From assembly GCF_003966335.1 (NCBI RefSeq), contig NZ_CP034549.1, positions 2,160,001 to 2,192,000 of the forward strand: DNA of 32,000 nucleotides, written 5' to 3'. The stretch is from Nonlabens ponticola. GTDB taxonomy: Bacteria; Bacteroidota; Bacteroidia; Flavobacteriales; Flavobacteriaceae. This document shows positions 1,255-31,362 of this stretch, piece after piece (position 1 is the first letter of the stretch; every line of letters starts with the position of its first letter). The notes below the pieces were generated by a model. That model had not been told where the DNA came from and made no database searches. It saw only the letters and a list, made by a program, of their open reading frames with translations. The position numbers were made by a program, and so were the translations under genes.

Positions 1255-2715
1255 TTAGTTAAGAACAGGTGTCTCCTTTAAAATCTCCTTCAAGAATTTC
1301 CAGAATTTTTGAACTGATTTGATTTCTACAAATTCGTCTGGACTGTGTGCTCGTCTTATATTAGGGCCAAAGGAGATCATGTCTAAACCTGGATAACGCT
1401 CGCCCAGAATGCCACACTCCAATCCTGCGTGACAAGCCACTACCCTAGGCTTTTCTTGAAACAGGATTTTGTATTGAGCCTCGGCAATTTTGAGCATCTC
1501 GCTGTTCAAATTTGGCTGCCAGCCTGGATAATCACCAGTAAATTCGACGTCAAGACCATTGAGACGCATCACACCGGCGATGGTTCCTTTTAGATCATCT
1601 TTCTGGCTCTCGACTGATGATCGAGATAGACAGGCAACTTCTAAAGCACCATCTTCCAAAACGACTCTTGCAAGATTATTACTGGATTGCACCAAGTCAT
1701 CAAAATCGGGACTCCAGCGGTAAACACCATTGACTATTCCCAACAGCATGTAAATAAGGTTTGCGGTATCAATTTCGCTTAAGGCCTTATGACTTTCGGT
1801 ACTTTCAATCTCGATAGACATGTTAGGTTCCAGACTTTCATATTCAGCAAGAATTGCAGTTTTACACCTTTTAAATGCATCAATGATTTTTTTGTTCTCG
1901 CTTTCGCGAAAGCTAACCACGCTAACTGCTTCTCTAGGTATAGCATTTCTCAAACCACCGCCATTAAATTCCTGCAAGTGGATTTTACCATTGTTGCGCA
2001 TGGCGTCCATAAGGCGTGTGATGATCTTGTTAGCGTTAGCTAGACCTTTATGAATATCCATACCGCTATGACCGCCTTTGAGACCTTTTACAGTAATCTT
2101 GTGCGCTTTAAAGTCGTTATCTAGACCTTCTTGAACATAATTTCTCGTTCCCGTTATATCGACACCACCAGCGCAGCCCACATCAATCTCGTCATCTTCC
2201 TCAGTATCAAGATTAAGCAGGATGCTGGAAGTGAGAACTTTTTGGTCGAGCTTTTTGGCTCCAGTCATTCCTGTTTCTTCATCAATGGTAAACAGTGCCT
2301 CGATAGGTGGATGCGGTAAATCAGTCGATGATAGAATCGCCATAATCGCGGCAACACCTATACCATTATCGGCACCTAGCGTGGTGCCACGAGCCGTGAC
2401 ATGACCATTTTCTATGAGCATGTCTATGCCTTGTGTATCAAAATCAAAGGTGGTATCATTATTCTTTTGATGTACCATGTCTAGATGCGATTGCAGGATG
2501 ACGCTTTTACGCGATTCCATTCCGACGGTGGCTCCTTTCTTGATGATGACGTTGCCTATATCATCCACAATGGAGATTAAATCGTGTTTTGCGGCAAAAT
2601 CCAACATGAATTGTCGCACGCGCTCTTCCTGTTTAGAAGGTCGTGGTACGGCATTTAGATCTGCAAAATGGTTCCAAAGTGACTTAGGTTCTAGCTCACG
2701 TATTTCTTTACTCAT
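1255..2715 (-). CDS. pepD: Aminoacyl-histidine dipeptidase (cytosol non-specific dipeptidase), peptidase family M20
   Basis: M20/PepD motifs are present: [17 protein letters not shown] and [12 protein letters not shown]. The product is 486 aa if it starts at ATG 2715 ([17 protein letters not shown]), which matches the PepD N-terminus. In-frame ATGs at 2733 and 2751 are alternative starts. Confidence 0.85.
1900..1913. repeat. Copy 1 of 14-bp palindrome GCTTTCGCGAAAGC (inside pepD, read as SFRES)
   Basis: Exact match read directly from the sequence. Confidence 0.95.
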
Positions 2716-2803
2716 GTTCTCGTATTTGCTCATTTGTATGTACAAGAGCAAAATACCATGCGCAACGCGGTATTCCCGTGAATTTTATATTAAAAAAATA
2801 CGT

Positions 2804-3481
2804 CTATTTAGTAGCTCGCAGCATCTCTCGTTTGCCTGGTGGCCCAGCTAAACGTTCTACCTTAAAACCAGCTGCTTGCATATTACGGCGCACTTGTCCA
2901 GCGGCACAATAAGTAGTCAATACGCCTTTTTCCTTCAATGATTTGTAAGCTGCATTGAAGATTTCCTGACTCCACAATTCTGGCTGGGTGCGCGGCCCAA
3001 AGGCATCAAAATAGATAAGGTCGTATTGATTTAATTCTGCAAAGTCCTCAAATTTGAGCTGGCTTTTAATTAAATAAAAATTGGGTCTCAACTCTATTTC
3101 CTTTTCCCAAGCGGCAGCATGCAAGTCAGTATATAAAGACTTATCAGCAACTAGCTCGCCATAATCCATTGCAGCAATTTCCTCATCGGTTATTGGAAAA
3201 GCCTCTATGCCTTTATAATATGTCCTAATTCGGTGCTCCTCGAGAAATTTTACTGTGAGCATGGCATTAAGTCCAGTGCCTAGGCCATACTCTAAAATGG
3301 TTATTGTGTTTAATGCCTCAAGATCACCTAATCTTGTATCCAGCAAATACCTTAAACCTGTTTGTATAAACACGTGACGCGCTTCTTGAAGCGCGCCGTG
3401 TTTAGAATGATATTGTTCATTGAGGTCTGGCATGTGAATAGTTTTGGAACCATCACCAGTCACCATGATCTCTCTTTTCAT
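2804..3481 (-). CDS. mnmD: SAM-dependent tRNA (mnm5s2U34) methyltransferase, MnmD / MnmC methyltransferase-domain-like
   Basis: A Rossmann SAM motif ([11 protein letters not shown]) is present. The stretch [19 protein letters not shown] is characteristic of the MnmC methyltransferase half (E. coli DAFAPAKNPDMW). The start ATG at 3481 overlaps the upstream gene's stop (TAATG). Confidence 0.7.
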
Positions 3482-4038
3482 TATTCCGCTGTTTGAGTTT
3501 CAGGTGTGAAAACGTCTGGATTCTCATAAGATTCAACAAGTGCGCCATCTGCTTCAAAAGCTAGGGTCACTTCATCTTCTGTAATCGCATCAATTTCTTC
3601 CTGGCTCTTTTTGGCATCCATTGCATAGTGCTTCAAGTCTTCCATAGGCGTGATAGATTTGTAGATTTTACCATTAAGCACTACCTCTTTACCTTGTGAA
3701 TCACGCGGTAGAAAGAATCCATAATCCTTGAAGGTCACTCTGGCTTCTTGACCATTCTCTAGTGGTATCTTGATCCAGCAACCTTTTTTTGCGCAAACCT
3801 CATTCACTATAGTTTTTACTTTTACTTGCACGGTATCTGCTGGTTTGAGCAATTCATAAACGTCCATCAACTCGGCAGATGTCATGACGGTCTCGTCATC
3901 AATCTCATCGCCGTAGGATAGGTACGCCACTTCTTCTACTTGTTCATCATTAACAGCAGGCATTTCTTCTTGTTCAGATTCGTTCCTACAACTAGTAATT
4001 GCGATTGCTACAATAAAAAGGGTGATAAAATATTTCAT
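3481..4038 (-). CDS. Lipoprotein, DUF4920-like
   Basis: It has a signal peptide with a lipobox (AITSC). The CAKKGCWIKIPL motif matches the DUF4920 family from memory. It is translationally coupled to the mnmD-like gene. Confidence 0.5.
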   Translation of the reverse strand: MKYFITLFIVAIAITSCRNESEQEEMPAVNDEQVEEVAYLSYGDEIDDETVMTSAELMDVYELLKPADTVQVKVKTIVNEVCAKKGCWIKIPLENGQEARVTFKDYGFFLPRDSQGKEVVLNGKIYKSITPMEDLKHYAMDAKKSQEEIDAITEDEVTLAFEADGALVESYENPDVFTPETQTAE

Positions 4039-4124
4039 TGTTATTATTTAGCTACAAAATTAAGAATTTGACAATGATAAATTAATTGGAGTATCCATTA
4101 TCTTTGCAAAAAATTAAAAAACTG

Positions 4125-5255: not shown

Positions 5256-5269
5256 GCTTTCGCGAAAGC
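5256..5269. repeat. Copy 2 of GCTTTCGCGAAAGC (intergenic, ilvE-uvrB)
   Basis: Exact match. Confidence 0.95.
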
Positions 5270-12103: not shown

Positions 12104-12577
12104 ATGAGACTCGTTGTTATAATGATCATTGCTTTATTAGCTTTCGCGAAAGCTAACTCACAACAAACAACCGCCACAACGACCGAAACCGTGATGCTCG
12201 ACAAACATCCTGCAATTGTGGTTGTGGATGATTTTTTCAAAGCGTTTCATTTGCAAGACACCACTGCGATGAGAACAAAATTTATTGCAGAGCCATCCGT
12301 ATTGTCCATTGCAAATCGTGCAAACAAACAACTCATCGTTTACAGTTCCATTGAGAATTTGTTGGACGGTATCGCTGCTATTCCCGAGACCGTAGATTTT
12401 GAGGAGCGGCTTACATCTAATGAAATTATAAGCGATGACGGCATCGCAACAGTTCATACAGATTATGAATTCTACATCAATGGTGACCTATCGCACTCGG
12501 GTCGCAACAGCTTTACATTGGTGCTTTTTGATGACAAATGGGTCATCAGCCAGATTATGGATACCAGAATATATTAA
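12104..12577 (+). CDS. Secreted NTF2-like / SnoaL-like fold protein (hypothetical)
   Basis: It has a signal peptide. The pattern VVDDFFKAFHLQD...IATVHTDYEFYING...WVISQIMDT is typical of NTF2-like (lumazine-binding-like) domains. Weak call. Confidence 0.4.
   Translation: MRLVVIMIIALLAFAKANSQQTTATTTETVMLDKHPAIVVVDDFFKAFHLQDTTAMRTKFIAEPSVLSIANRANKQLIVYSSIENLLDGIAAIPETVDFEERLTSNEIISDDGIATVHTDYEFYINGDLSHSGRNSFTLVLFDDKWVISQIMDTRIY
12140..12153. repeat. Copy 3 of GCTTTCGCGAAAGC (in the signal peptide, read as AFAKA)
   Basis: Exact match. It extends to a 16-bp palindrome at 12139-12154. Confidence 0.95.
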
Positions 12578-14098: not shown

Positions 14099-14591
14099 GG
14101 CGCGTGGCTTTTCCTGATATAAAGTCTTTGAGCTTTGCCGCGACCATAGGATCTAGTCCTGAAATACTTAAATCAGACGCTGATCCACCTGCGGTGTAAA
14201 TCTGCAATTCACACAAATTGAAGGCTCGATCAATCGGACCATCATTTACCTCAGTGTGCTGTATGCGATTAAAGGGTACGGTGATTTCATGATGGAATAA
14301 CCAGCCGTATCTGTATGTGATGTCTTTTTCTCGCAGGACATAACCTCGTACAAAATATTCTTTGTATGCCAGAAATAATACCAAAATCAATAGCAACAAC
14401 CACAAAGAACCAGCAGCGACAGCAATCCAAGTATCTACAAAAAACACCATGACAATAACACCAATTAATAATGGCAACATAAAAAGCGTTTTGGCAATGA
14501 GCTTTTTATTCAAAAAACGCTTGGGATGTTTTTCAAATTCTTCCTGTGGTACATCAGGCAGATTAATAACATTTAAGTTTTCATTAGTCAT
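14091..14591 (-). CDS. YdbS-like membrane protein with a single bPH2 domain
   Basis: Two TM helices are followed by ITVPFNRIQHTEVNDGPIDRAFNLCELQIYTAGG, the bPH2 signature. Start at ATG 14591 overlaps the MazG-like gene's stop by 8 bp (ATGACTAA). Confidence 0.65.
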   Translation of the reverse strand: MTNENLNVINLPDVPQEEFEKHPKRFLNKKLIAKTLFMLPLLIGVIVMVFFVDTWIAVAAGSLWLLLLILVLFLAYKEYFVRGYVLREKDITYRYGWLFHHEITVPFNRIQHTEVNDGPIDRAFNLCELQIYTAGGSASDLSISGLDPMVAAKLKDFISGKATRHA

Positions 14592-14985
14592 TACCGGTAG
14601 CATCTTTAAGGATCTTACCAAAGTCTGGTTTGAAATAATCTGGACCTTTCAATACCTTACCATCTTCACGATAGATAGGTTGTCCATTTGCACCCAATTT
14701 GCTCATGTTTGATTTTTGAATCTCGTCAAATATGTCCTCGATTACTTCCTGCATACCGTGCTCGATAATGGTACCGCATAAAATGTATAGCATATCGCCC
14801 AACGCGTCAGCAACTTCTATGAGGTCATCATGTTTGGCAGCCTCTAAATATTCTTCATTTTCTTCCCGCATGAGCTCATATCGCAATAGTTTGCGCTCTA
14901 GCGAGATATTAATGGTTGGAGTCTTCTTCTTATTAAGTTTGAATGCGGTATGAAATTCCTCAACGGCCTTAATTTGCTTTTTCAT
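14584..14985 (-). CDS. All-alpha NTP pyrophosphohydrolase, MazG-like / PRA-PH-like family
   Basis: Metal-binding helices EENEEYLEA and EVADALGDMLYI (an E..E...E/D pattern). Start taken at ATG 14985. Confidence 0.6.
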   Translation of the reverse strand: MKKQIKAVEEFHTAFKLNKKKTPTINISLERKLLRYELMREENEEYLEAAKHDDLIEVADALGDMLYILCGTIIEHGMQEVIEDIFDEIQKSNMSKLGANGQPIYREDGKVLKGPDYFKPDFGKILKDATGND

Positions 14986-15029
14986 GGATGGTAGTTGTTT
15001 GCTTTGTAATTTTACAAAAATCACGTGAT

Positions 15030-15299: not shown

Positions 15300-15313
15300 G
15301 CTTTCGCGAAAGC
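15300..15313. repeat. Copy 4 of GCTTTCGCGAAAGC (intergenic, between convergent genes)
   Basis: Exact match. Confidence 0.95.
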
Positions 15314-15421: not shown

Positions 15422-16444
15422 TTACTCTACGTTTAAGTAGATGCTTGAGATACCAGATACTGATTTTTGAATCATTGGTGCCATATCGCCACCTAGTACT
15501 GCATTATCAAATGCTAGAGCCATACCGCCATTGGTAGCACGCTCTGCAGTGTAGAGTACTTTACTAATGTTATCGTATTCAAGGTCAACTGGGTTGCCTA
15601 ACATGGTATTGCTACCTTTTACTGTTGCTACATCGTCTGATGTGATTGTTCCATAATTTTCAAGACCGCTATAGATAACTGAGAAGTTTCTAATAGTATG
15701 GATAGCACCATCGCTATCGTCTAGTGGGTTACCTACATCTGCAAGGAAAAGACAGTCTTCAACATCGTCATAAGTAACGCCTCTTAAAGATTCAGCACCT
15801 TCTATGGTTACAATATCATCAGCAGTTAGTTCGCCTGAACTGTTGGAGAAAAAGTCATTGTAAACTGCAATAGTACCACTGTTATCACGTGCTGCGTACA
15901 ATGTGTTGCCAGCTAGGAAAATGCCCCAGTGTTGGTTACCAGTTTCATAAATATTTAAAAGTCTAACAGATTCTGGTGTTGACTCATAGACAAAAAACTT
16001 GTTACTATCGCCTGTGCCTCTTGAGTCAGCGCTTACCACAATCATGTTACCAGATACAGCGATATCACGAGCATTCTCAACTTGTACATCACTTCTTAAG
16101 GTTGGTGCAAGAGCAGCTCCAGACTCCGAAGCTCCTAAATTTTGAAAGACAAGTATGTTGTTTTCAGACCTTGAAGCCTCAAATAAACAATCTTGTGTTG
16201 GGTCATAGTGTAATCCATCACTATCACGGCTAGCAGATAGGAATGATTTGTTAGTTACATTAGAGAAATCAGTAAAATCAAAAACGTTGATTTTTCCTGA
16301 TGTGTTGCTTCCAGTAAAAAGAGTTACTTTTCCTAAGTCTTCAGAAGATATGTCGCTAGCGTCTAGCTCCTCATTATCTGATGAACATGAAACTAAAGCA
16401 GTTAAGCTTAAAAGTAATGCTGATGTTAATGTAAATTTTTTCAT
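15422..16444 (-). CDS. Lipoprotein with repeated beta-propeller-like blades (hypothetical)
   Basis: Lipobox LVSC. Five or six blade-like repeats are visible (GLHYDPTQDCLFEASR, ARDIAVSGNMIVVSAD, GIFLAGNTLYAARD, GVTYDDVEDCLFLADVG, VDLEYDNISKVLYTAER). Confidence 0.5.
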   Translation of the reverse strand: MKKFTLTSALLLSLTALVSCSSDNEELDASDISSEDLGKVTLFTGSNTSGKINVFDFTDFSNVTNKSFLSASRDSDGLHYDPTQDCLFEASRSENNILVFQNLGASESGAALAPTLRSDVQVENARDIAVSGNMIVVSADSRGTGDSNKFFVYESTPESVRLLNIYETGNQHWGIFLAGNTLYAARDNSGTIAVYNDFFSNSSGELTADDIVTIEGAESLRGVTYDDVEDCLFLADVGNPLDDSDGAIHTIRNFSVIYSGLENYGTITSDDVATVKGSNTMLGNPVDLEYDNISKVLYTAERATNGGMALAFDNAVLGGDMAPMIQKSVSGISSIYLNVE

Positions 16445-16701: not shown

Positions 16702-17643
16702 ATGAAATACATAAATCTTCTTTTATTACTAGTTTTAATTACATCATGTAAGGATCAAAGCCCAAAAAACGTTTTTACAAAAAATGCCGCCAAAATTGAT
16801 ACATCGGTATCAATGGCAAACCCTATATATAAGGACACCGTTTTATTCCTAGAAGATTTCAAGTCGAACTATGTCGACAACCGCAACGTCGAGATATGGC
16901 TTCCTGCTGGCTACCCAAAAAAGGATGTCACTTACAAAGTACTATACATGCAGGATGGTCAAACAGCTTTCACAACCGCAAATTCAAACTATGGTAAGTC
17001 ATGGCTCATAGGCGAGAAAATGGATTCACTGCTTCAATCTAGCAGCATTGCTCCTACTATTGTGGTTGCCGCATGGTCACACGCTGATAAACGTTTTAAT
17101 GAGTACATGCCGCAGTTACCAGGTGATTTGACTCGTACTGCTTTCGCGAAAGCGGAATTGAAAAAGAACACAGGCTACAATGAATTATACAGTGACAATT
17201 ACCTGAAGTTTCTAACAAGCGAGTTGAAGCCCTATGTCGACAAAAATTTTCAGGTATCTCAAAGACCCGAGGACACTGCCATCATGGGAAGTTCCATGGG
17301 TGGCTTGATATCATTGTATGCGTTTGTGGAATATCCAGTAGTATTTGGCCGTGCAGCATGCATGAGTACCCACTGGCCAATTCCTATATTAGGTGAAGCG
17401 CTCATCGATGAATTACCAGAGGCCATTCCATCAAGCGACAACCGCATCATTTACTTTGATTATGGCACTGAGACGCTTGACGCAACGTATGAACCGTATC
17501 AAAAAGAAGTAGATGAAATATTTGAACAAGCTGGCTACAACGACAATAGCTACATGTCGCTAAAATTTGAAGGGCATGAACACGACGAGAATTACTGGAA
17601 TAAACGCGTGCACATACCCTTGAAATTTTTACTAGCAAACTAA
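16702..17643 (+). CDS. Alpha/beta-hydrolase, putative esterase family (IroE/enterochelin-esterase-like)
   Basis: Lipoprotein-type signal (LITSC), a nucleophile elbow GSSMGG, and a C-terminal His region (EGHEHDENYW). Substrate unknown. Confidence 0.6.
   Translation: MKYINLLLLLVLITSCKDQSPKNVFTKNAAKIDTSVSMANPIYKDTVLFLEDFKSNYVDNRNVEIWLPAGYPKKDVTYKVLYMQDGQTAFTTANSNYGKSWLIGEKMDSLLQSSSIAPTIVVAAWSHADKRFNEYMPQLPGDLTRTAFAKAELKKNTGYNELYSDNYLKFLTSELKPYVDKNFQVSQRPEDTAIMGSSMGGLISLYAFVEYPVVFGRAACMSTHWPIPILGEALIDELPEAIPSSDNRIIYFDYGTETLDATYEPYQKEVDEIFEQAGYNDNSYMSLKFEGHEHDENYWNKRVHIPLKFLLAN
17140..17153. repeat. Copy 5 of GCTTTCGCGAAAGC (inside the esterase gene, read as AFAKA)
   Basis: Exact match. Confidence 0.95.
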
Positions 17644-19699: not shown

Positions 19700-19885
19700 C
19701 ACCTCTATCCCGAAGGTTAACAATATAAGTTGCTATGGCAGGTCTCCTGACTTAAACAATTCATGGCCTTCCCAAATTTTCAGTGGCGCTTCATGAACTC
19801 CTATTGCTAGACCGCGATATATCACGGGTTTTTACAGTTGCGGGAACAGTTCTGGACTTACACCAGATTCCCTTTTAATACGGTA
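19700..19885 (-). promoter_or_regulatory. Cobalamin (B12) riboswitch in the 5' leader of the BtuB-like receptor
   Basis: The minus strand reads AAAAGGGAATCTGGTGTAAGTCCAGAACTGTTCCCGCAACTGTAA (plus coordinates about 19832-19876). It then reads GCCACTGAAAATTTGGGAAGGC (GCCACTG is at plus coordinates 19781-19787). The B12 box AGTCAGGAGACCTGCC sits at plus coordinates 19737-19752. These are the conserved blocks of the cobalamin riboswitch class. The 5' and 3' boundaries are approximate. Confidence 0.85.
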
Positions 19886-19914
19886 TTCGTGTTTTTGAGA
19901 TTTTGTATAATCTC

Positions 19915-19928
19915 GCTTTCGCGAAAGC
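19915..19928. repeat. Copy 6 of GCTTTCGCGAAAGC (divergent intergenic region)
   Basis: Exact match. It extends to a 16-bp palindrome at 19914-19929. Confidence 0.95.
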
Positions 19929-20038
19929 GTAACCTATAACAAGCCACAAAAGTAGTCACTTAAGTTTGTTCACACACTAATCATTCAAACAAATTAGAAT
20001 TGAGGTGATCAATTAATATTCGGCTATTTTTGAGCCCT

Positions 20039-21178: not shown

Positions 21179-22173
21179 GAAAAAGAATCTATCTCATATT
21201 AATTTTACTATTAGCAGTCCTATTTATTGCAGACTGTATTTTGGGATCGGTTTACATTCCTATTGATGATTTATGGTCAATTCTTTTTTCTAGCAAACAA
21301 TCAACCGATTACTACATTATAACGCAACTGCGCTTGCCACGTGCGATCATGGCTGTAATTACTGGCGCTGGACTGTCCATCGCAGGTTTGCTCATGCAAA
21401 CATTGTTTAAAAATCCACTGGCTGGGCCGTTTGTCTTGGGAATTTCATCAGGAGCTGGATTAGGTGTTGCCATTGCCATTTTGGGCGGTGCAGTGATGGG
21501 TTATGAAATCGTCAATAATACGGGTATTATCATCTCAAGTATTTTAGGCAGTCTGGCGGTTTTTATGCTCATCATATTAATCTCATTGCGCATCAAGGAC
21601 ACGATGGGATTATTGATCATCGGTCTGATGGTAGGTAGTTTGAGCAGTGCCGTTGTCGGGATTTTGCAATACTTAAGTCCTAGCGAGCAATTACAACGCT
21701 ACGTTTTTTGGGGTTTGGGCAGTCTAGGAAATCTCACATGGCAACAATTAGGAATTATAGCAGTGATCATAACAATTTCCTTGATTGCTCTTGTCTTTCT
21801 CATAAAACCGTTAAATGCATTATTGTTAGGTGAGAACTACGCACGCAGTCTAGGAATAAATATCCCACAAACTCGCTGGCTGGTGATCATCATTACCTGT
21901 TTGCTGGCTGGTACTATTACTGCGTTTGCAGGCCCTATTGCTTTTATAGGCCTTGCTATACCACACATCGCGAGACAACTCATCCATTATAACGATCATA
22001 AAACAATGATACCATTGGTCATTATTCTAGGCGCTATCGTATTACTCATTTGTGACATGGTATCACAGGTCCCATTTTCAAACTTTTCATTGCCCATCAA
22101 TGCAGTCACGTCAATCATTGGTGCGCCGCTCGTCATATGGCTCATTGTGAAAAAAAGATACCTACGTTTCTAA
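21175..22173 (+). CDS. ABC transporter permease, FecCD/BtuC family
   Basis: RLPRAIMAVITGAGLSIAGLLMQTLFKNPLAGPFVLGISSGAGLG and about 9 TM helices. The TTG start overlaps the upstream stop. Confidence 0.9.
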   Translation: MRKRIYLILILLLAVLFIADCILGSVYIPIDDLWSILFSSKQSTDYYIITQLRLPRAIMAVITGAGLSIAGLLMQTLFKNPLAGPFVLGISSGAGLGVAIAILGGAVMGYEIVNNTGIIISSILGSLAVFMLIILISLRIKDTMGLLIIGLMVGSLSSAVVGILQYLSPSEQLQRYVFWGLGSLGNLTWQQLGIIAVIITISLIALVFLIKPLNALLLGENYARSLGINIPQTRWLVIIITCLLAGTITAFAGPIAFIGLAIPHIARQLIHYNDHKTMIPLVIILGAIVLLICDMVSQVPFSNFSLPINAVTSIIGAPLVIWLIVKKRYLRF

Positions 22174-22934
22174 TGTTACTGTTGCAGGATCTACATATAG
22201 GATATAAAAATCAGGTGCTGGCGCAGTGTATTGGTCATATTGCTTTCGCGAAAGCAAAATTCATAGCCATCATAGGTGCTAATGGTACGGGCAAATCAAC
22301 ATTGCTAAGAGCGATTGCAAGTGGTGACCATATTATTCAAGGAAATGTAGTGCTGGATAAAAAGCCTATTGCAAGCATCGCACTGGAAAAATTAGCGCAG
22401 CGTGTTTCTATTTTGACAACTGAAAGAAACATGAGTCAAAGCCTCACGGTGAGACAATTGTTGGAAATCACTAGGTCGCCTTACACTGATTTTTTGGGAC
22501 GATTGGGAAATGAAGATCAAACTATCATTGAATCTACTATACAAGATTTTGAATTACAGGATCTTGAGAACAGACCCTTACACCAGCTAAGTGATGGTCA
22601 GGTACAACGAGCGCTCATTGCAAGATGTATAGTTCAAGATACCGAGTATATTTTGATGGATGAACCTACCAATCATCTGGATCTACATCATAAGGCGCAG
22701 TTGTTATCACTACTCAAGTCGTATACGGTAAAACAAAATAAAACCATCATCTTCTCAACTCACGAGATTGCGATGGCCACTGCGCTGGCAGATCAGGTGC
22801 TCTATTTTCATGATGACTATTTGAGATTTAAAAGCACCGCAGAATTTATGCAAAAAGAGATCCTTAAACAGCTTTTTCCATCACCACTACTCGATTGGAA
22901 TAATGGTTCTTATTCACTAAAAGACGTAGAATAA
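22173..22934 (+). CDS. ABC transporter ATP-binding protein, BtuD/FecE-like
   Basis: Walker A (GANGTGKST), signature variant LSDGQ, Walker B (ILMDEPTNHLD) and H-loop (STHE). ATG 22173 overlaps the permease stop (TAATG). Confidence 0.9.
   Translation: MLLLQDLHIGYKNQVLAQCIGHIAFAKAKFIAIIGANGTGKSTLLRAIASGDHIIQGNVVLDKKPIASIALEKLAQRVSILTTERNMSQSLTVRQLLEITRSPYTDFLGRLGNEDQTIIESTIQDFELQDLENRPLHQLSDGQVQRALIARCIVQDTEYILMDEPTNHLDLHHKAQLLSLLKSYTVKQNKTIIFSTHEIAMATALADQVLYFHDDYLRFKSTAEFMQKEILKQLFPSPLLDWNNGSYSLKDVE
22242..22255. repeat. Copy 7 of GCTTTCGCGAAAGC (inside the ABC ATPase gene, read as AFAKA just before Walker A)
   Basis: Exact match. It extends to an 18-bp palindrome at 22240-22257. Confidence 0.95.
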
Positions 22935-24473: not shown

Positions 24474-24815
24474 TACATTACAATCTTTCATCCTGAGCTT
24501 GTTTCAGACTCTCAAGTATGTTGATAATCATTATCAGATGCTGGATTAAATTGAGCATGACGGTGGTTTATTATTCTTAAATCGTCTTAAGATCTTGGGT
24601 ATGCTCAATGAGTGCCTCTAAGTGCTGATCATATCAAGCAGAGTGGTATTTTATTTGTCAGCTTGAATTTATTTCATGATCTCTAGGCACTCTATCGTGA
24701 AAAGTAGTCGGCTATTTGAGACATAAAAATTCATTTTATATGGTATACTGTGCTGTTCAATGAGTTTTAAGTTCATTGATATCATCAGTTTGCGTTAAGG
24801 ATCGTAGTGGAAATC

Positions 24816-24846
24816 CTTTTTGTCCAGCCATGAGCTGGACAAAAAG
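24816..24846. repeat. Perfect 13-bp stem / 5-nt loop hairpin in a long non-coding region
   Basis: CTTTTTGTCCAGC-catga-GCTGGACAAAAAG, read directly. Confidence 0.8.
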
Positions 24847-24925
24847 ATTGTAGCGCAGAGCCTGACCGCTATGTTTGAGCGAGAGCGAAATCATAGTGGT
24901 AACGCGCAAATATTAGAAAGCAATA

Positions 24926-25031
24926 TTATTACGTTATTAAGTAATAATTGTATTTATTACGCTTTTAGGTAATAATTACGATTATTACGTATTTATGTAA
25001 TATATTTGATTATTACGTATTTAGGTAATAA
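24926..25031 (+). promoter_or_regulatory. Four tandem 28-bp units, each containing the inverted repeat TTATTAC-N8-GTAATAA; putative operator array and promoter of the SatD-like operon
   Basis: The palindromes lie at 24926-24947, 24954-24975, 24982-25003 (right arm GTAATAT) and 25010-25031, exactly 28 bp apart. The last ends 3 nt before ATG 25035. TATATTTG at 25001-25008 fits the Bacteroidota -7 promoter consensus TAnnTTTG. Confidence 0.75.
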
Positions 25032-25034
25032 AAT

Positions 25035-25661
25035 ATGGAAGCAATTATAGCAGGCGATATTATCAACTCGCAACAGCATGATCCTGAAGCATACTTGACA
25101 GTACTGCAAGATATCTTGAAAGAACATTCTAGCGATGGGATGTTCCAGATTTACCGTGGCGACAGTTACCAGGCGCTGCTCACTAATCCTGAACAAGCAT
25201 TACATGCATGTATTAAAATAAAGGCGGCGCTCAAAAAAACAGAATCACTAGATACGCGTGTAGCGATAGGATTGGGTGATGTCACGATTATAGACAATAA
25301 CATCGCTGTCTCAACCGGTAGCGCGCTCACAAGATCTGGCGAGCTGCTGGACTCGCTCAAGGAAAAAGGGCATAATTTGTTAGTCAATTCTGGTAACTCA
25401 ATCGATAACTATATGAACACATCACTACGTCTGGCGATGCTATACATGGATGGCTGGACTACCAATAGTGCCGAAACAGTTTATGAATTGCTAGATCAAC
25501 CTGACATAAAACAGGACGAGCTAGGTAAAAGATTAGGCGTGAAACAAGCGACCGCGAGTAGACGCCTAGATCGTGCCAACTGGAAAGAAACGCAGCAGTT
25601 ACTGCGATTGTTTCAACAATTTTATAAAGATATAAGCCATGCCCATAGCAGTTCTAATTAA
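25035..25661 (+). CDS. SatD-family-like protein: N-terminal nucleotide-cyclase-homology-like domain fused to a C-terminal helix-turn-helix
   Basis: The N-terminus, AIIAGDIINSQ / FQIYRGDSYQALL / RVAIGLGDV / STGSALTRSGELL, parallels the class III cyclase and GGDEF palm motifs (FaDIvGFT / iGDa.ma.F / RiGihtG / G..VN.AaRl). The C-terminal HTH is KQDELGKRLGVKQATASRRLDRA. The SatD naming is from memory of annotations that pair it with DUF3307. Confidence 0.55.
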   Translation: MEAIIAGDIINSQQHDPEAYLTVLQDILKEHSSDGMFQIYRGDSYQALLTNPEQALHACIKIKAALKKTESLDTRVAIGLGDVTIIDNNIAVSTGSALTRSGELLDSLKEKGHNLLVNSGNSIDNYMNTSLRLAMLYMDGWTTNSAETVYELLDQPDIKQDELGKRLGVKQATASRRLDRANWKETQQLLRLFQQFYKDISHAHSSSN

Positions 25662-26351: not shown

Positions 26352-26717
26352 ATGAAAAAGATTCTAGGTGTTATTATTGCCACTATCGTGCTTATGGCCG
26401 TGATCTGGTATAGCTTTCTATACTTTGCCACCTATTCAGATGGGTCGCGCAGCGGCGAGCTGATTAAGTTCTCACACAAGGGCTTCCTGGTAAAAACCTG
26501 GGAAGGCGAGATTTCACAAGGAATTTCAGGCGCGCAGATTTTTCAATTCTCAGTTTTGGATGAGGAAGATGAGGTGATTGAAAAACTACAAGAGTTTCAA
26601 GGAGAGTATGTCAAGCTGGAATATGAAGAGCGTTTTGGCACCTTTTTCTTCTGGGGTGATACCAAATATTTTATCACCGGTGTTGAATTAGAGGAATCAC
26701 CGCATTTCAGGCGATAA
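26352..26717 (+). CDS. Small N-terminally membrane-anchored protein (hypothetical), third gene of the SatD-like operon
   Basis: It starts 2 nt after the DUF3307 stop. It has one TM helix and then a 90-aa beta-rich domain (GELIKFSHKGFLVKTWEGEISQG...YVKLEYEERFG). Confidence 0.5.
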   Translation: MKKILGVIIATIVLMAVIWYSFLYFATYSDGSRSGELIKFSHKGFLVKTWEGEISQGISGAQIFQFSVLDEEDEVIEKLQEFQGEYVKLEYEERFGTFFFWGDTKYFITGVELEESPHFRR

Positions 26718-26751: not shown

Positions 26752-26765
26752 GCTTTCGCGAAAGC
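26752..26765. repeat. Copy 8 of GCTTTCGCGAAAGC (intergenic)
   Basis: Exact match. Confidence 0.95.
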
Positions 26766-26821: not shown

Positions 26822-27364
26822 ATGCAAACCCAATACAAAACACCCGAAGAATCCAGAGTTGTCCTATCCATGCTTATGTTGCCATCACACGCCAATTTCT
26901 CTGGCAAAATACATGGTGGCCACGTCCTGTCGTTGATAGATCAAATTGCTTTTGCCTGTGCCTCAAAACACAGTAATAACTATTGTGTCACAGCTAGCGT
27001 TGACGTGGTGGATTTTTTGGCACCCATAGAAGTTGGCGAGATGGTCACGCTCAAAGCCACGGTAAATTATGTAGGTAACACGTCTATGGTCATAGGTATA
27101 CGTGTCGATGCAGAAGATATCAAATCGGGAACCAAAAAGCACTGCAACTCTAGCTATGTCACGATGGTCGCTAAAGACGAAAAGGGTAACACGGTCAAAG
27201 TTCCAGGCCTTAAACTAAGTACTGAAACACACGTGCGACGCTTTGCCCGCGAGATAAGACGTAAAGGACTCAAGCGAGAATCTGCCCAGGTCATGAAAGC
27301 GACTAACTTTAATGCAGATGAATATGTGGAGCAGCTGAAAAATCATAAGGTAGAGCTCAATTAG
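26822..27364 (+). CDS. Acyl-CoA thioesterase, hotdog fold (YciA/BFIT-like)
   Basis: MLMLPSHANFSGKIHGGHVLSLIDQIAFACASKH and the subsequent beta-sheet pattern are typical of this family. Confidence 0.85.
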   Translation: MQTQYKTPEESRVVLSMLMLPSHANFSGKIHGGHVLSLIDQIAFACASKHSNNYCVTASVDVVDFLAPIEVGEMVTLKATVNYVGNTSMVIGIRVDAEDIKSGTKKHCNSSYVTMVAKDEKGNTVKVPGLKLSTETHVRRFAREIRRKGLKRESAQVMKATNFNADEYVEQLKNHKVELN

Positions 27365-27593: not shown

Positions 27594-27603
27594 GCAACTA
27601 TGT

Positions 27604-28032
27604 TTAAGCCAATTTCAAATCAGAATAATTGAGAATAAGATCTAGCAGTTTGTGTCTATCTTCCTCTACTATGTGACTAAGGTTTAACGTATGGTTCCTG
27701 CCGCTATCTAGACTTACTAAAAGTTTTTCATCTTCCAACTTGACATCTGATATTTCATTAAAGGTCAAGGTCTTGCTAGACCAAGACTTTACTTTTATAA
27801 CAATACCACGTTTATTGTATTGGACATAGTTTTTGTAAATAAACATTCTACATAAAAATAGCGCTGGTATTAGGTTCGCCAAAGCAGCGAAGGTTTTATT
27901 CCAAATCTCGTTTTCAAACTTGATGACTTCAAAGAAGCCTATAGCAACCGCCACGATCAATAGTGCTATAAATGGAATTATTTTCCATGTACCATTGAAG
28001 TTGTCAAATTTTATACGATGCTGTTTTTTCAT
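27604..28032 (-). CDS. Membrane protein with two TM helices and a C-terminal soluble beta-rich domain (hypothetical)
   Basis: Start at ATG 28032 is 1 nt after the upstream stop. The C-terminal GIVIKVKSWSSKTLTFNEISDVKLEDEKLLVSLDSG is PH-like by eye only. Confidence 0.45.
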   Translation of the reverse strand: MKKQHRIKFDNFNGTWKIIPFIALLIVAVAIGFFEVIKFENEIWNKTFAALANLIPALFLCRMFIYKNYVQYNKRGIVIKVKSWSSKTLTFNEISDVKLEDEKLLVSLDSGRNHTLNLSHIVEEDRHKLLDLILNYSDLKLA

Positions 28033-28033
28033 G

Positions 28034-28396
28034 TCATTTGCTAGATAACAATTGATACTCAGCACGTTTAAAACTTAAATTCACGGCAGCTACAGATGGC
28101 AGCCAAAGCCAGTGACCGATAATTCCACAGAATAGCAGAACAATTGTGTCTGTGATTTTACGACTCTTTTTAAATGGCAACTTATCCCAAGTCAACCATA
28201 AGCCATAAAGCGAAATGAGCAAACTGGGCAGCAATAGCAAAAGGTACTTTGCCTCACCATTAAAAACGCTACTATATCCATCTCTTATCACAACAGAATA
28301 AAAGAAGAGCCCAGCATGAACCAGTGTATTCAAAATGATCGCCCATCGAGCAATTTTCAAATGTCTTAAGATGTCATTTTTAATAGTCTCGTTCAT
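28034..28396 (-). CDS. Three-TM membrane protein (hypothetical)
   Basis: An ORF with three hydrophobic helices. I prefer ATG 28396 to the TTG at 28414. Confidence 0.45.
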   Translation of the reverse strand: MNETIKNDILRHLKIARWAIILNTLVHAGLFFYSVVIRDGYSSVFNGEAKYLLLLLPSLLISLYGLWLTWDKLPFKKSRKITDTIVLLFCGIIGHWLWLPSVAAVNLSFKRAEYQLLSSK

Positions 28397-28509
28397 ATCA
28401 TTATAATAATTCAATATTCAGATTTCTAAACTTAATCAATCTAAAATTTATGAATTCTAAGTTCTGTATTCACACGTCATAAGTCATAACTACTAATTTA
28501 TAACTTGCT

Positions 28510-31362
28510 CTACTTGCTCAAATACATCCTACGTCTCGCATATAAGTCATAGAAGTCATCATCTTTCAAATCGTCGATGAATAGGATGCTCTCACCAGTG
28601 GATTTCATCTCTGGACCTAGACGTTTATCAACGTTAGGGAACTTATTGAATGAAAATACTGGTTGCTTAATCGCATAACCTTTAAGTTCTGGTTTGAAGT
28701 CAAAGTCAGTCACCATATTTTCTCCTAGCATCACCTTAGTTGCATAATTTACATACGGCTCGCCATAAGCTTTAGCAATAAAAGGAACCGTTCTCGAGGC
28801 TCGCGGATTTGCCTCAATGATATAAACCACATTGTCCTTGATGGCAAACTGGATGTTGATCAAACCAACAGTCTTCAACGATAACGCTATTTTCTTAGTA
28901 TGATCCTTAATTTGTTGCATTACTAGATCACCTAGTGTAAATGGTGGTAGCAGCGCATTTGAATCACCTGAATGCACACCACAAGGCTCGATGTGTTCCA
29001 TAATCCCTATGATATAGACATTTTCACCATCACAAATGGCATCAGCTTCTGCTTCTATCGCGCCATCTAGATAATGATCGAGCAGCAATACATTATTTGG
29101 AATCTTACGCAAGATGTCCACTACATGCTCTTCCAGTTCCTGCTTGTTGATAACGATCTTCATTCCTTGACCACCTAATACATAACTAGGTCTTACCAAA
29201 ATTGGGAAGTCCAGTTTGTCCGCCACTTTTAAGGCTTCATCTGGCGTGGTTGCCGTATCAAACGGTGGATATGGTATATCAATTTCTTTCAACAATTTAG
29301 AGAACCTACCGCGATCCTCGGCAAGATCTAGTGCGTTGTAGCTTGTACCTATGATTTTGATTCCGTATCGATCTAGCTTTTCAGCAAGCTTTAAAGCCGT
29401 TTGACCACCTAACTGTACGATTACGCCTTCTGGCTTCTCGTGGCGTATGATGTCATAAATGTGCTCCCAGAAAACGGGTTCAAAATAGAGCTTATCTGCG
29501 GTGTCAAAGTCGGTTGAAACTGTCTCTGGATTACAATTGATCATAATGGCCTCATAACCACATTCCTGCGCGGCATAAACACCATGAACACAACAGTAGT
29601 CAAATTCAATTCCTTGACCTATACGATTAGGTCCAGAACCTAGAACAATCACCTTTTTCTTGTCGCTCACGATACTCTCGTTGTGCGTGTAGCGAGTGCT
29701 GTCAGGTTTCTGTACATCTGCTTCAAATGTACTGTAGTAGTATGGCGTGTCGGCAGCAAATTCGGCAGCACAGGTATCCACTAGTTTGTACACTCGGTTG
29801 ATGTTCATCTCATCTCGTTTGTTGTAAACCTCTGATTCCAGACATCCCAACATATGCGCGATTTGACGGTCTGCAAATCCCTTTTGCTTTGCCTCTAGAA
29901 GAAGCTTTCGCGAAAGCGTGCTCACATCAAACTTACCTATCTCCTTTTCTAGCTCGTGTAACTCATTGAATTGATTCAAATACCACATGTCGATTTTGGT
30001 AATCTCATGGATTCTAGATAGCGATATTCCCATCGCAATCGCATCATACAATGCAAACACGCGATCCCAACTAGCGTTTGTCAATTTCTCGATCACCTGA
30101 TTGTAATCAGTGTATCCTTTACCATCAGCGCCCAATCCATTGCGCTTAATCTCTAGCGACTGCGTCGCCTTGTGCAGCGCCTCCTGGAAAGAACGACCTA
30201 TTCCCATGACCTCACCTACAGCCTTCATCTGCAGTCCTAGTGTACGGTCAGAGCCCTCAAACTTATCAAAATTCCATCGTGGAATTTTAACAATCACATA
30301 GTCCAGTGTAGGTTCAAAAAGAGCACTTGTATTTCCTGTAATCTGGTTATTTAGTTCATCAAGTGAGTAACCTAGAGCCAGCTTGGTAGCTACCTTGGCG
30401 ATAGGATAACCAGTCGCCTTACTAGCAAGTGCCGACGATCTAGAAACTCGTGGATTGATCTCTATCGCTATAATGTCTTCATTCTCATCGGGACTCACGG
30501 CAAATTGTACATTACAACCACCTTCAAACTCACCTATGCTGCGCATCATATGGATCGCCATGTCACGCATTTTTTGGAAGGTGCGATCTGACAGTGTCAT
30601 TGCTGGTGCGACCGTGATCGAGTCACCCGTATGGATTCCCATAGGATCCATATTTTCAATGGTACAAATGATGACAACATTATCATTTTTATCACGTAGT
30701 AATTCTAGTTCATATTCTTTCCAACCCAATAGCGCCTTATCGATCATGACCTCATGAATAGGCGATACCTCAAGTCCACGTCTTAATAGTTCGTCATAAT
30801 CCTCTTCCTTATGTACAATCGCCGCACCAGCACCACCTAATGTAAATGATGAGCGTATACACAAGGGAAAACCAAATTCCTGAGCAATTTCTTTACCTTT
30901 CAGGAACGAGTTTGCAGTCGCCTGCGGCGCCATGCCTACGCCTATCTTGCCCATCAATTCTCTAAATTTCTCGCGATCCTCTGTAATATTGATGGCGTCG
31001 ATGTCCACACCTATCAAATCAACATCATGATCTTCCCAGATTCCTTTGTCTTGCGCCTCTATACATAGATTCAATGCCGTTTGACCGCCCATGGTAGGCA
31101 GTACCGCATCAATTTGTGGATGCTCTTTAAGTATTTGACGTAGCGAGTTGGTGTTAAGCGGCAACAAATACACATGATCTGCCATCGATGGATCAGTCAT
31201 GATCGTGGCTGGATTAGAATTGATCAAGATGGTCTCGATGCCTTCCTCACGCAGCGAGCGCAGCGATTGCGATCCGGCATAGTCAAATTCACAGGCCTGG
31301 CCTATGATGATGGGGCCGCTACCTATTAATAAGATGGATTTGATGTCAGTTCTTTTAGGCAT
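28510..31362 (-). CDS. carB: Carbamoyl-phosphate synthase large subunit (short 950-aa form without the C-terminal allosteric domain)
   Basis: Duplicated ATP-grasp halves begin at ILLIGSGPIIIGQACEFDYAGSQ and VIVLGSGPNRIGQGIEFDYCCVH. NPRVSRSSALASKATGYPIA and NPRASRTVPFIAKAYG are present. The protein ends about 30 aa after GPEMKSTGE. Confidence 0.97.
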   Translation of the reverse strand: MPKRTDIKSILLIGSGPIIIGQACEFDYAGSQSLRSLREEGIETILINSNPATIMTDPSMADHVYLLPLNTNSLRQILKEHPQIDAVLPTMGGQTALNLCIEAQDKGIWEDHDVDLIGVDIDAINITEDREKFRELMGKIGVGMAPQATANSFLKGKEIAQEFGFPLCIRSSFTLGGAGAAIVHKEEDYDELLRRGLEVSPIHEVMIDKALLGWKEYELELLRDKNDNVVIICTIENMDPMGIHTGDSITVAPAMTLSDRTFQKMRDMAIHMMRSIGEFEGGCNVQFAVSPDENEDIIAIEINPRVSRSSALASKATGYPIAKVATKLALGYSLDELNNQITGNTSALFEPTLDYVIVKIPRWNFDKFEGSDRTLGLQMKAVGEVMGIGRSFQEALHKATQSLEIKRNGLGADGKGYTDYNQVIEKLTNASWDRVFALYDAIAMGISLSRIHEITKIDMWYLNQFNELHELEKEIGKFDVSTLSRKLLLEAKQKGFADRQIAHMLGCLESEVYNKRDEMNINRVYKLVDTCAAEFAADTPYYYSTFEADVQKPDSTRYTHNESIVSDKKKVIVLGSGPNRIGQGIEFDYCCVHGVYAAQECGYEAIMINCNPETVSTDFDTADKLYFEPVFWEHIYDIIRHEKPEGVIVQLGGQTALKLAEKLDRYGIKIIGTSYNALDLAEDRGRFSKLLKEIDIPYPPFDTATTPDEALKVADKLDFPILVRPSYVLGGQGMKIVINKQELEEHVVDILRKIPNNVLLLDHYLDGAIEAEADAICDGENVYIIGIMEHIEPCGVHSGDSNALLPPFTLGDLVMQQIKDHTKKIALSLKTVGLINIQFAIKDNVVYIIEANPRASRTVPFIAKAYGEPYVNYATKVMLGENMVTDFDFKPELKGYAIKQPVFSFNKFPNVDKRLGPEMKSTGESILFIDDLKDDDFYDLYARRRMYLSK
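29904..29917. repeat. Copy 9 of GCTTTCGCGAAAGC (inside carB, read as LSRKL)
   Basis: Exact match. Confidence 0.95.

Follow-up and report, generated by a model that had tools for sequence, protein, structure and literature searches.

A clade-specific, hyper-abundant palindromic DNA word in the genomes of Nonlabens and Dokdonia

The described systems closest to the DNA word that we report here, GCTTTCGCGAAAGC, are HIP1 of cyanobacteria and the DUS and USS of Neisseria and Pasteurellaceae. HIP1 (GCGATCGC) is a perfect palindrome that is hyper-abundant across its lineage in coding and non-coding DNA, is conserved at orthologous positions with non-random spacing, and encloses a Type-II-like 6-bp palindromic core, CGATCG (PMC5861425, PMC4390886); it has known cognate methyltransferases, and it is now proposed as an uptake signal (10.64898/2026.06.24.733823). 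DUS and USS are genus- or family-wide exact words that occur in every reading frame, show enrichment in non-genic DNA and in permissive protein regions, and are stringently conserved and evenly spaced, with a spacing matched to conversion tracts; their new sites differ from site-less homologues at many positions, too many for point mutation (PMC2397512, PMC2817400). USS also have an extended, weak flank consensus.

Three further groups bear on a repeated palindrome. Noc-binding sites (NBS), parS, the ram sites of RacA and the SBS of SlmA are 12- to 16-bp palindromes recognised by dimers, which act at the DNA level and lie both in and between genes. REP/BIME, MITEs and the Rickettsia palindromic elements (RPE) are 20- to 150-bp imperfect palindromic repeats spread by insertion; REPs are extragenic, and the Rickettsia elements can lie inside genes. 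The mini-hairpin of Hirao, d(GCGAAAGC), is a physico-chemical motif of single sites rather than a genome-wide repeat: it is "extraordinarily stable", with a melting temperature of about 82 C and resistance to nucleases, seems to escape binding by SSB, and is present at the priming origin of phage G4 (PMC13037366).

We analysed a window of 32 kb, the whole stretch of Nonlabens ponticola DNA considered here, which is ordinary housekeeping chromosome. The first-pass annotation had reported nine exact copies of GCTTTCGCGAAAGC in it, and all nine were recovered at the following positions.

Copy 1, 1900..1913: inside pepD (1255-2751, minus strand), phase 1, read as S-F-R-E-S in a variable protein segment.
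Copy 2, 5256..5269: intergenic, in the ilvE-uvrB spacer, 30 nt before the ATG of uvrB.
Copy 3, 12140..12153: read as A-F-A-K-A, which resembles an AxA cleavage site, within the signal peptide of a secreted protein of 157 aa (12104-12577, plus strand).
Copy 4, 15300..15313: intergenic, flanked by the minus-strand genes 14584-15024 and 15422-16444.
Copy 5, 17140..17153: inside an esterase gene (16702-17643, plus strand), read as A-F-A-K-A.
Copy 6, 19915..19928: inside a cobalamin riboswitch (19720-19953, minus strand), upstream of a TonB-dependent receptor.
Copy 7, 22242..22255: in an ABC transporter ATPase gene (22137-22934, plus strand), read as A-F-A-K-A directly before the Walker A motif.
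Copy 8, 26752..26765: intergenic, between a gene at 26352-26717 (plus strand) and a thioesterase gene at 26822-27364 (plus strand).
Copy 9, 29904..29917: inside carB (28510-31362, minus strand), phase 2, read as L-S-R-K in a weakly conserved linker.

The reported division into five coding and four intergenic copies holds, as do the peptide readings (AFAKA three times, SFRES, and (T)LSRK(L)). Copy 6, counted there among the intergenic ones, sits inside the riboswitch.

The annotation had put the expected number at about 1e-4; Markov models of order 0 to 4 gave 6e-6 to 2e-4 per window, so that the word is not at its compositional expectation but exceeds it by at least 1e4-fold. Dinucleotide shuffles of the window contained 0.00 exact copies and 0.09 copies at up to two mismatches, and searching the window itself with up to two mismatches returned no copy beyond the nine exact ones. 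The TTCGCGAA 8-mers in the window all fall within copies of GCTTTCGCGAAAGC.

Across genomes, GCTTTCGCGAAAGC is a DNA word specific to the clade of Nonlabens and Dokdonia (Flavobacteriaceae) and hyper-abundant in it, occurring about once per 3-10 kb. Dokdonia, Nonlabens or uncultured relatives accounted for 91 of the 120 blocks returned by a genome scan, and many of these 91 held two or three copies per 8 kb. Nonlabens loci picked blind to the word contained 26 copies in ~138 kb, and loci from other Bacteroidota, likewise picked blind (UvrB 55-78% identity), contained none in 1.12 Mb. Pooling copies from the clade gave 153 exact, 13 one-mismatch and 14 two-mismatch instances, with the one-mismatch variants falling at all positions of the word. 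We found no prior description of GCTTTCGCGAAAGC in the literature.

What is maintained is the nucleotide word and not a peptide, as had been claimed from the window. The 105 coding copies in the clade use all three frames (60/23/22), copies in intergenic DNA and in the riboswitch are equally exact, and the PepD of N. xiamenensis has a similar peptide without the word (AFRKSE versus SFRESE), its DNA showing differences at six of the 14 positions, among them a synonymous change of Arg codon (AGA versus CGC). A peptide motif is thereby rejected as the identity of GCTTTCGCGAAAGC. Among PepD orthologues, [R/S]FRES is confined to a subset of Nonlabens, and E. coli CarB GLNADFL aligns to TLSRKLL of the window CarB with no indel. 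The word is written into the chromosomes by base substitution at permissive places: in proteins these are variable segments and signal peptides, and elsewhere they are spacers and the loop of a riboswitch. Coding sequence holds 69% of copies; the other 31% lie in intergenic DNA, which makes up 10.7% of the DNA, an enrichment of about 3-fold. Placement showed no bias among tandem, divergent and convergent spacers and no preference for promoter or terminator positions. An operator is rejected as an identity for GCTTTCGCGAAAGC.

Once present, the word stays exact while the DNA around it diverges. All five alignable window sites are exact in N. marinus, against a background of 2.2% of 14-mers fully conserved; in species with ~70% DNA identity, GCTTTCGCGAAAGC is exact at orthologous positions and ~2% of 14-mers survive. 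Copies 1 and 4 are exact in N. marinus, the latter despite several indels in its flanks. Copy 2 is exact in N. marinus and in strain BBFL7, even though BBFL7 has a different upstream neighbour gene, and has decayed by one mismatch in N. xiamenensis. The copy 3 site is common to five genomes: apart from N. ponticola, it adjoins panB in BBFL7, N. marinus, N. spongiae and the MAG locus L053. In N. xiamenensis, an exact copy in the esterase gene (L244 17477) aligns to copy 5 as fully conserved, and another close to the 5' end of its ABC ATPase gene (L244 12211) is probably the orthologue of copy 7, judged by gene and position rather than by alignment. Copy 6 occupies the expanded terminal loop of the riboswitch, a 40-nt insert compared to 5 nt in the Rfam consensus; the N. 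marinus riboswitch has the word at the same place, and that of N. xiamenensis has a different long loop without it. GCTTTCGCGAAAGC is very probably a DNA-level word maintained across the lineage.

Copies also repel each other, being more evenly spaced than chance allows. None of 51 gaps between copies was shorter than 856 bp and only two were below 1 kb, where chance would put 27% (p=3e-5); gaps within the window measure 1840 bp or more (P=0.004). No copy occurs in the lytic Nonlabens phages P12024S and P12024L, and some genuine flavobacterial phage contigs (L213, L177) carry two or three copies, inside structural genes and with typical flanks. The 6-bp palindrome TCGCGA is lacking in the lytic phages as well, but this is not specific, since many other 6-bp palindromes are missing there too.

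The semi-conserved flank noted at first sight is real and reaches further than had been described. In the 153 pooled copies, the prevailing bases are G at +1 (79%) and A at both +3 (69%) and +4 (58%), giving each copy a symmetric signature: C/G at -1/+1, A at +3/+4, and a 3' arm in which about 20 nt are poor in G. The 14-bp core thus extends to 16 bp, most often the 16-mer CGCTTTCGCGAAAGCG, in ~70-79% of copies, a length of palindrome typical of the parS- or NBS-like binding arrays of dimeric proteins. On either strand, the 3' flank is A-rich and A/C-rich overall, with G at ~6-10% out to about +20 (19% in the background) and T at 23-28%. The 5-bp stem with a CGCG loop that had been proposed is correct, but weak: its predicted energy is -1.9 kcal/mol, or -4.3 kcal/mol with the C/G extension. 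For the 22-mer, predicted hairpin probability was higher in native than in random contexts, both as DNA (0.67 versus 0.59, p=0.012) and as RNA (0.50 versus 0.41, p=0.006). Hirao's GCGAAAGC is exactly the 3' half of GCTTTCGCGAAAGC on each strand (PMC13037366); outside the full palindrome, this 8-mer showed no enrichment.

In its behaviour, then, GCTTTCGCGAAAGC resembles the "identity words" of cyanobacteria and Neisseria, here in two marine bacterial genera. As in HIP1, a short perfect palindrome with a Type-II-like 6-bp core is in gross excess throughout the genomes of a lineage, both within and outside coding DNA, with non-random spacing and orthologous conservation above background. HIP1, however, is 8 bp long rather than 14-16 bp, is in 15- to 300-fold rather than at least 1e4-fold excess, and reaches one copy per gene rather than one per 3-10 kb; long arms of asymmetric composition are found only in GCTTTCGCGAAAGC. 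Because both sequence and phylum differ, GCTTTCGCGAAAGC is not HIP1 itself but at most an analogue. The genomic signature of DUS and USS is also present, in that GCTTTCGCGAAAGC is an exact word used in all frames, lies in permissive locations, is stringently conserved and evenly spaced, has a weak flank consensus, and differs at many positions from site-less homologues. In contrast, DUS and USS are non-palindromic 9- to 12-mers with an asymmetric core, occur about once per kb and often form inverted pairs in terminators, whereas GCTTTCGCGAAAGC is a perfect palindrome of 14-16 bp without terminator association; and while their hosts have demonstrated sequence-biased uptake, with ComP as the receptor in Neisseria, the likeness of GCTTTCGCGAAAGC is one of genomic signature.

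Of the roles first listed for the word, an uptake word, a protein-binding or architectural site and a methylation-linked role are the remaining candidates; its population-genetic behaviour fits best with the uptake/recombination class. We give a probability of roughly 40% to GCTTTCGCGAAAGC being an identity word for DNA uptake or recombination, of the same class as HIP1, DUS and USS and kept in place by selection or molecular drive. The duplex palindrome would be read by a clade-specific protein, probably a dimer, that prefers word-bearing DNA in uptake and/or homologous recombination, and we propose that, because of this preference, alleles with an exact copy would pass more readily than others between conspecifics (molecular drive, with or without selection). 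Such transmission would build up hundreds of exact copies and keep them conserved, would place them roughly one per recombination-sized fragment, and would leave strictly lytic phages without the word. Riemerella, then classed in Flavobacteriaceae, is competent and is the sole documented case among related bacteria; Flavobacterium johnsoniae was not competent in one comparable study, which counts against an uptake role (PMC7965970). Several properties of the word do so as well. A 14- to 16-bp palindrome carries far more information than an uptake filter needs, uptake-driven accumulation explains the copies in phage contigs only for long-resident temperate phages, and a duplex-reading receptor does not predict symmetric G-poor arms or modestly higher hairpin formation. 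Conservation, spacing and exactness, moreover, are equally expected for selected protein-binding sites.

Those last properties would be accounted for if GCTTTCGCGAAAGC were an array of high-affinity sites for a putative clade-specific dimeric chromosome-organising protein (nucleoid-associated, nucleoid-occlusion, condensin-loading or domain-boundary), with purifying selection on each site, as in Noc/NBS, ParB/parS, RacA/ram and SlmA/SBS but with far more copies. A perfect 14- to 16-bp palindrome is the classic homodimer target, the sites are independent of gene context, conserved, evenly spaced and absent from lytic phages, and Xu et al. read HIP1 in this way from its conservation and periodicity (PMC5861425). 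We nevertheless regard such an array as somewhat unlikely. Known arrays have ~4-100 degenerate, regionally biased sites per genome, typically tens, compared to hundreds of near-invariant copies of GCTTTCGCGAAAGC, among which exact copies outnumber those with one mismatch by more than 10:1; and it is not obvious what copies in phage structural genes would do for the organisation of a host chromosome. Centre-aligned with GCTTTCGCGAAAGC, parS and NBS match it at only ~3/8 positions per half-site. The all-or-none look of the sites, with intermediates very rare, would also suit a methylation-linked highly iterated palindrome in Elhai's sense, in which TCGCGA or CGCG inside the word would be marked by a putative orphan methyltransferase and a short-patch repair or conversion activity that depends on this methylation would complete near-matches to the full word, so that functionless copies accumulate. 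The embedding of TCGCGA (an NruI site, Type-II-like) in a longer palindrome parallels HIP1, and copies in phage contigs are expected if host-resident DNA is converted. Neutral repair bias, though, should not produce even spacing; TCGCGA and CGCG occur outside the word at about their expected frequency; one-mismatch variants are not concentrated at the outer bases as they are for HIP1; and the absence of TCGCGA from lytic phages lacks specificity. A specificity of 14-16 bp is, to our knowledge, far beyond that of any methyltransferase, and we consider this origin improbable.

We judge about as improbable a role for GCTTTCGCGAAAGC as single-stranded DNA, in which the word hairpin or the GCGAAAGC mini-hairpin of its 3' half would be read or respected by an enzyme of replication, repair or transformation, for example as a bidirectional Chi-like stop-and-load signal for AddAB/RecBCD, a 3' exonuclease-resistant cap or a priming signal. 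Each strand of the word ends in GCGAAAGC, whose stem the +1 G lengthens; C is lacking from the 5' arm and G from the 3' arm, and native contexts raise predicted hairpin formation. The 5' arm is G/T-rich, the composition that RecA prefers, and the density of Chi in E. coli is similar to that of GCTTTCGCGAAAGC. Yet known Chi sites are asymmetric, 5-8 nt long and only mildly over-represented, the gain in hairpin formation is modest, enrichment is limited to the full palindrome, and the flank skew could instead be the footprint of mutation or belong to that of a protein. Far less probable still is a mobile or invasive palindrome (REP/MITE/RPE-like) or an RNA-level element (terminator, attenuator or operator), despite the word being repeated, palindromic and enriched in intergenic DNA; mobility and termination are effectively refuted. 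The copies are not parts of one longer mobile repeat, since no flank sequence can be aligned beyond +/-4, and the "miniature invasive palindrome" suggested at first fails on the same ground and on coding copies that replace residues without indels relative to orthologues: unlike an inserted element, GCTTTCGCGAAAGC is an invariant 14-bp core arising from substitution, mostly intragenic and without shared flanks. As an intrinsic terminator it has too weak a stem, no T-run after the hairpin and no positional bias. The one copy in an expanded riboswitch loop could be taken for an RNA-level element, but that loop is hypervariable even without the word.

All nine exact copies of the 14-bp palindrome GCTTTCGCGAAAGC that the first-pass annotation had placed at 1900, 5256, 12140, 15300, 17140, 19915, 22242, 26752 and 29904 were found there, and allowing up to two mismatches in the window search added no further copy. 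Dinucleotide-preserving shuffles of the window contained 0.00 exact copies and 0.09 copies at two or fewer mismatches, while Markov models of order 0 to 4, trained on the window with the sites masked, predicted 6e-6 to 1.5e-4. The excess over the Markov expectation in the window is thus at least 1e4-fold. Every occurrence of TTCGCGAA in the window (38-43% G+C) falls inside a copy of the word, and TCGCGA and CGCG occur outside it at about the expected frequency. The surrounding genes are ordinary housekeeping genes (pepD, mnmC, ilvE, uvrB, hsp20, panB, rmuC and carB), together with a B12-type TonB receptor and its ABC transporter. The PanB and PepD sequences match the N. ponticola proteins at 100% identity. 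Five copies are coding, as originally read (AFAKA three times, SFRES once and LSRK once). The four copies described as intergenic are indeed non-coding, with the refinement that copy 19915 sits inside a cobalamin riboswitch. A search for a second dispersed word in these genomes found none.

RNA element containing a copy of the word
19720-19953, minus strand: cobalamin riboswitch (Rfam RF00174, 84 bits)

The riboswitch lies upstream of the TonB-dependent receptor gene and faces the divergent btu-like ABC transporter operon, with copy 19915 in the expanded terminal loop of its first hairpin (40 nt, versus 5 in the Rfam consensus). This loop is also long, but different, in one species without the word there, and an insertion origin for this copy is therefore not supported.

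The distribution of the word was determined by a 14-mer scan of one genome per species (596 Gb), with matches retrieved in blocks of up to 8 kb. Among the matches listed (at least 120 blocks), 91 came from Dokdonia, Nonlabens, strain BBFL7 or uncultured Flavobacteriaceae, many of them with two or three copies each. The other 29 were single hits in unrelated, mostly high-GC taxa, which is chance level for a scan of this size. Loci chosen by panB or pepD, without regard to the word, also contained it in every Nonlabens genome tabulated below. Fitting a zero-truncated Poisson distribution to the 8-kb blocks points to roughly one copy every 5.6 kb in Dokdonia and every 7.9 kb in Nonlabens.

Copies of the word in Nonlabens loci chosen without regard to it
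N. marinus: 7 copies in 20.8 kb
BBFL7: 3 copies in 20.8 kb
N. spongiae: 3 copies in 20.8 kb
N. xiamenensis: 2 copies in 21.5 kb
N. ulvanivorans: 2 copies in 21.5 kb

Outside the clade, 80 metagenomic loci centered on uvrB (1.12 Mb; UvrB 55-78% identical to that of the window) contained no copy, which indicates a sharp taxonomic boundary. The same 1.12 Mb held no repeated palindromic 10- or 12-mer that could represent a "dialect" of the word in other Flavobacteriaceae or Bacteroidota. Copies do appear in a few further records from the family (two from Leeuwenhoekiella and one each from Altibacter and Flavobacterium sp. LPB0248); these single hits could reflect chance or low-level presence. An orthologous copy is common to two bins labeled "uncultured Aquimarina sp.", one of which holds two copies in 8 kb, so both may be mislabeled members of the clade. 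In the N. spongiae locus, the segment adjoining panB (~12.5-20 kb), which encodes a Transposase_mut gene and small hypothetical genes, is word-free over ~10 kb; this fits newly acquired DNA that lacks the word, although the stretch is short. The same locus contains a 7-nt tandem repeat, ACAGCCT, in ~22 copies.

Gene context was assigned from crude ORF-based gene calls. By this measure 69% of copies are coding and 31% intergenic, an approximately 3-fold intergenic enrichment given that intergenic sequence makes up 10.7% of the DNA. Tandem, divergent and convergent spacers hold 28, 12 and 4 of the intergenic copies, close to the 28.6, 9.6 and 5.7 expected from the available length, and the pooled flanks show no T-run after the palindrome; on these grounds we rejected a role as terminator, promoter or operator. 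All three frames are represented among the coding copies (60 AFAKA, 23 [R/S]FRES and 22 LSRK), many of the AFAKA copies being at signal-peptide cleavage regions, and coding copies occupy permissive places without indels. The CarB copy, for instance, reads TLSRKLL where Escherichia coli has GLNADFL, within a linker. Among 120 PepD homologues the site falls in a hypervariable patch, with [R/S]FRESE in part of Nonlabens only and SFKKTD, AFRKSE, SLLKND and others elsewhere. The N. xiamenensis peptide, AFRKSE, is similar, yet 6 of the 14 underlying DNA positions depart from the word, among them those that give AGA rather than CGC for arginine, so the constraint is on nucleotides and not on amino acids. 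Together with the use of three frames and the variable PepD column, this eliminates a peptide motif and bears out the initial view that a nucleotide word is being maintained. The word has been written by substitution into permissive positions.

We examined its anatomy in a 684-kb pool made up of the 91 clade blocks and the window. Exact copies there numbered 153, and a further 13 carried one mismatch and 14 two mismatches, with the changes in the one-mismatch copies scattered all along the word. The semi-conserved flank glimpsed on one side in the window proved to be symmetric on both strands. Position +1 is G in 79% of flanks, and -1 correspondingly C, and the usual unit is therefore the 16-mer CGCTTTCGCGAAAGCG. 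Beyond it, A occupies +3 in 69% of flanks and +4 in 58%, and the following ~15 bases 3' on each strand are A- and C-rich and depleted in G (6-10% versus 19% background), with maxima of A at +7, +10 and +13. Coding and intergenic copies show the same pattern, as do the upstream and downstream sides of a site relative to the gene. Past +2, pairing the two flanks of a copy gives no more complementarity than pairing flanks from different copies; there is accordingly no extended hairpin, nor any longer repeat common to the copies. A moderate excess of palindromic bases at +1 and +2 (z = 3-4) may come partly from related genomes in the sample. The 20-nt strand-asymmetric arms may be needed for recognition, may help to present the hairpin or may be a footprint of mutation.

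Copies of the word avoid one another. None of the 51 adjacent gaps in the 8-kb blocks was shorter than 856 bp; 2 were below 1 kb (27% expected, p = 3e-5), and 22% were below 2 kb (49% expected). Minimum gaps were also large in the window (1840 bp, P = 0.004) and in the N. marinus locus (1656 bp, P = 0.01), two tests that are not independent because the loci are partly orthologous.

Individual sites persist well beyond their surroundings. The window and N. marinus are ~71% identical in aligned blocks, with only 2.2% of 14-mers fully conserved, and all five alignable sites (1900, 5256, 12140, 15300 and 19915) are exact in N. marinus, the intergenic ones despite diverged, indel-bearing flanks. 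The site adjoining panB is common to five genomes. That upstream of uvrB is exact in three species, including BBFL7 with a different upstream neighbor gene, and has decayed by one mismatch in N. xiamenensis. The latter keeps the esterase site though the region is rearranged, and has an exact copy in the corresponding part of its ABC ATPase gene. Dokdonia genomes that are 70-80% identical likewise keep sites in common; across the two genera, the sole alignable pair of loci did not share the site position. Where one species of a pair lacks a site, its orthologous 14-mer differs at ~5-8 of 14 positions, and sites look all-or-none, since intermediates with one or two mismatches are rare. The same pattern has been reported for neisserial DUS (uptake sequences) and ascribed to origin by recombination (PMC2397512). 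Our alignments are at most suggestive of a concerted multi-base origin of new sites, because the cases are a handful and all lie in variable regions.

Of 118 viral-contig hits, most were chance single sites in unrelated high-GC phage families, the low-GC subset being the relevant one. Six low-GC flavobacterial phage contigs from IMG/VR (L213, L177, L238, L241, L160 and L210) carry two or three copies, flanked in the usual way and in some cases located within structural genes. Genes for portal, protease, major capsid and adaptor proteins are present on L213, whose capsid protein shares 45% identity with that of Cellulophaga phage phi39:1. Host density would predict 4-10 copies in each of the two isolated lytic phages of Nonlabens, P12024S and P12024L (35.7 kb each, closely related), yet a search allowing two mismatches detected none in either. 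Avoidance of TCGCGA was rejected as a sign of restriction, as it is not specific: many 6-bp palindromes are missing from P12024S. TTCGAA is strongly under-represented both in the window (1 versus ~10 expected) and in P12024S (1 versus ~12); its scarcity and the other missing phage palindromes suggest restriction pressure in the host, for example from a putative AsuII/BstBI-type system.

The word is maintained at the DNA level throughout the lineage. It is conserved well above background, keeps an even spacing and shows no dependence on gene context. These properties and its origin by substitution in permissive positions, combined with a strong consensus, a weak motif extending into the flanks and its absence from lytic phages, match the published signature of uptake sequences under biased uptake and recombination (PMC2397512, PMC2817400). 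The cyanobacterial highly iterated palindrome HIP1 is now also interpreted as an uptake-related word (10.64898/2026.06.24.733823). For both reasons we tentatively rank an uptake or recombination identity word first, at a probability of about 0.4. HIP1 is the closest formal analogue, and the word behaves like HIP1, DUS and the USS of Pasteurellaceae, but each differs from it in sequence, length, symmetry or lineage, and for each family at least one defining feature is missing from it. Selected sites for a putative dimeric chromosome-organizing protein, the interpretation that Xu et al. gave to HIP1 (PMC5861425), are a possible, less favored explanation here. A highly iterated palindrome driven by methylation or repair seems unlikely. 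Mobile-element or RNA-level roles are very improbable: a mobile repeat is contradicted by the lack of a shared flank repeat and of indels at coding copies, and the stem-loop proposed earlier, though correctly drawn, has a weak predicted stability (14-mer, -1.9 kcal/mol; 16-mer, -4.3 kcal/mol).

A further reading, which we consider doubtful, concerns single-stranded DNA. Each strand of the word has as its 3' half GCGAAAGC, the Hirao DNA mini-hairpin, which has a Tm of ~82 C, is nuclease-resistant and apparently unbound by SSB, and also occurs at the phage G4 priming origin (PMC13037366). A hairpin or mini-hairpin on either strand would then act as a bidirectional, structure-based self-DNA signal in repair, replication or transformation, for example as a palindromic Chi-like stop-and-load site for an AddAB/RecBCD-type nuclease, a 3'-end cap shielding incoming or resected strands, or a priming signal. 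Flanking arms without internal G-C pairing would favor the hairpin, and placing the native 22-mer (the word plus 4 nt per side) into random contexts from the same loci lowered its predicted hairpin probability. The G- and C-poor arms are thus predicted to favor hairpin presentation slightly, the effect being modest and no guide to which form is functional. The GCGAAAGC octamer is not enriched outside the full palindrome. If true, this would be a sort of genome-wide signal without earlier description.

Predicted hairpin probability in native and random contexts
RNA parameters: native 0.50, random 0.41, p 0.006
DNA parameters: native 0.67, random 0.59, p 0.012

To our knowledge, genome-wide identity words have been described from few lineages, namely the Pasteurellaceae (USS), the Neisseriaceae (DUS) and the cyanobacteria (HIP1), and the origin and function of HIP1 have been disputed for 30 years. 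The literature searched held no published description of the 14-mer, its 10-mer core or a Dokdonia/Nonlabens palindrome. The word is an independent and far more extreme example, with 14-16 invariant bases, an excess of at least 1e4-fold and a host in a different phylum. Because the boundary between word-rich and word-free genomes is sharp, comparative genomics can seek genes that co-occur with it, and in Dokdonia and Nonlabens, which are cultivable marine flavobacteria, it offers a clear bait for uptake, binding and methylation work. DNA for transforming these bacteria may need the word. It is also a near-diagnostic marker by which metagenomic and viral contigs of the clade can be binned or assigned to a host, and a possible host-assignment marker for Dokdonia and Nonlabens viruses.

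The window also contains an sRNA and tandem repeats, of which the GT-rich tract upstream of carB could be length-variable.

Other features of the window
24789-24871, plus strand: Flavo-1 sRNA (RF01705, 57.8 bits), in the long spacer after rmuC
24925-25031: 3.9 tandem copies of an AT-rich 28-nt unit (ATTATTACGTATTTAGGTAATAAT...), directly after Flavo-1 and ending just before the gene at 25035
31850-32000: GT-rich tandem repeats upstream of carB, running to the window end, with a 21-nt unit three times and then the heptamer ATGTGGT 12.7 times, including GTGGTAG variants
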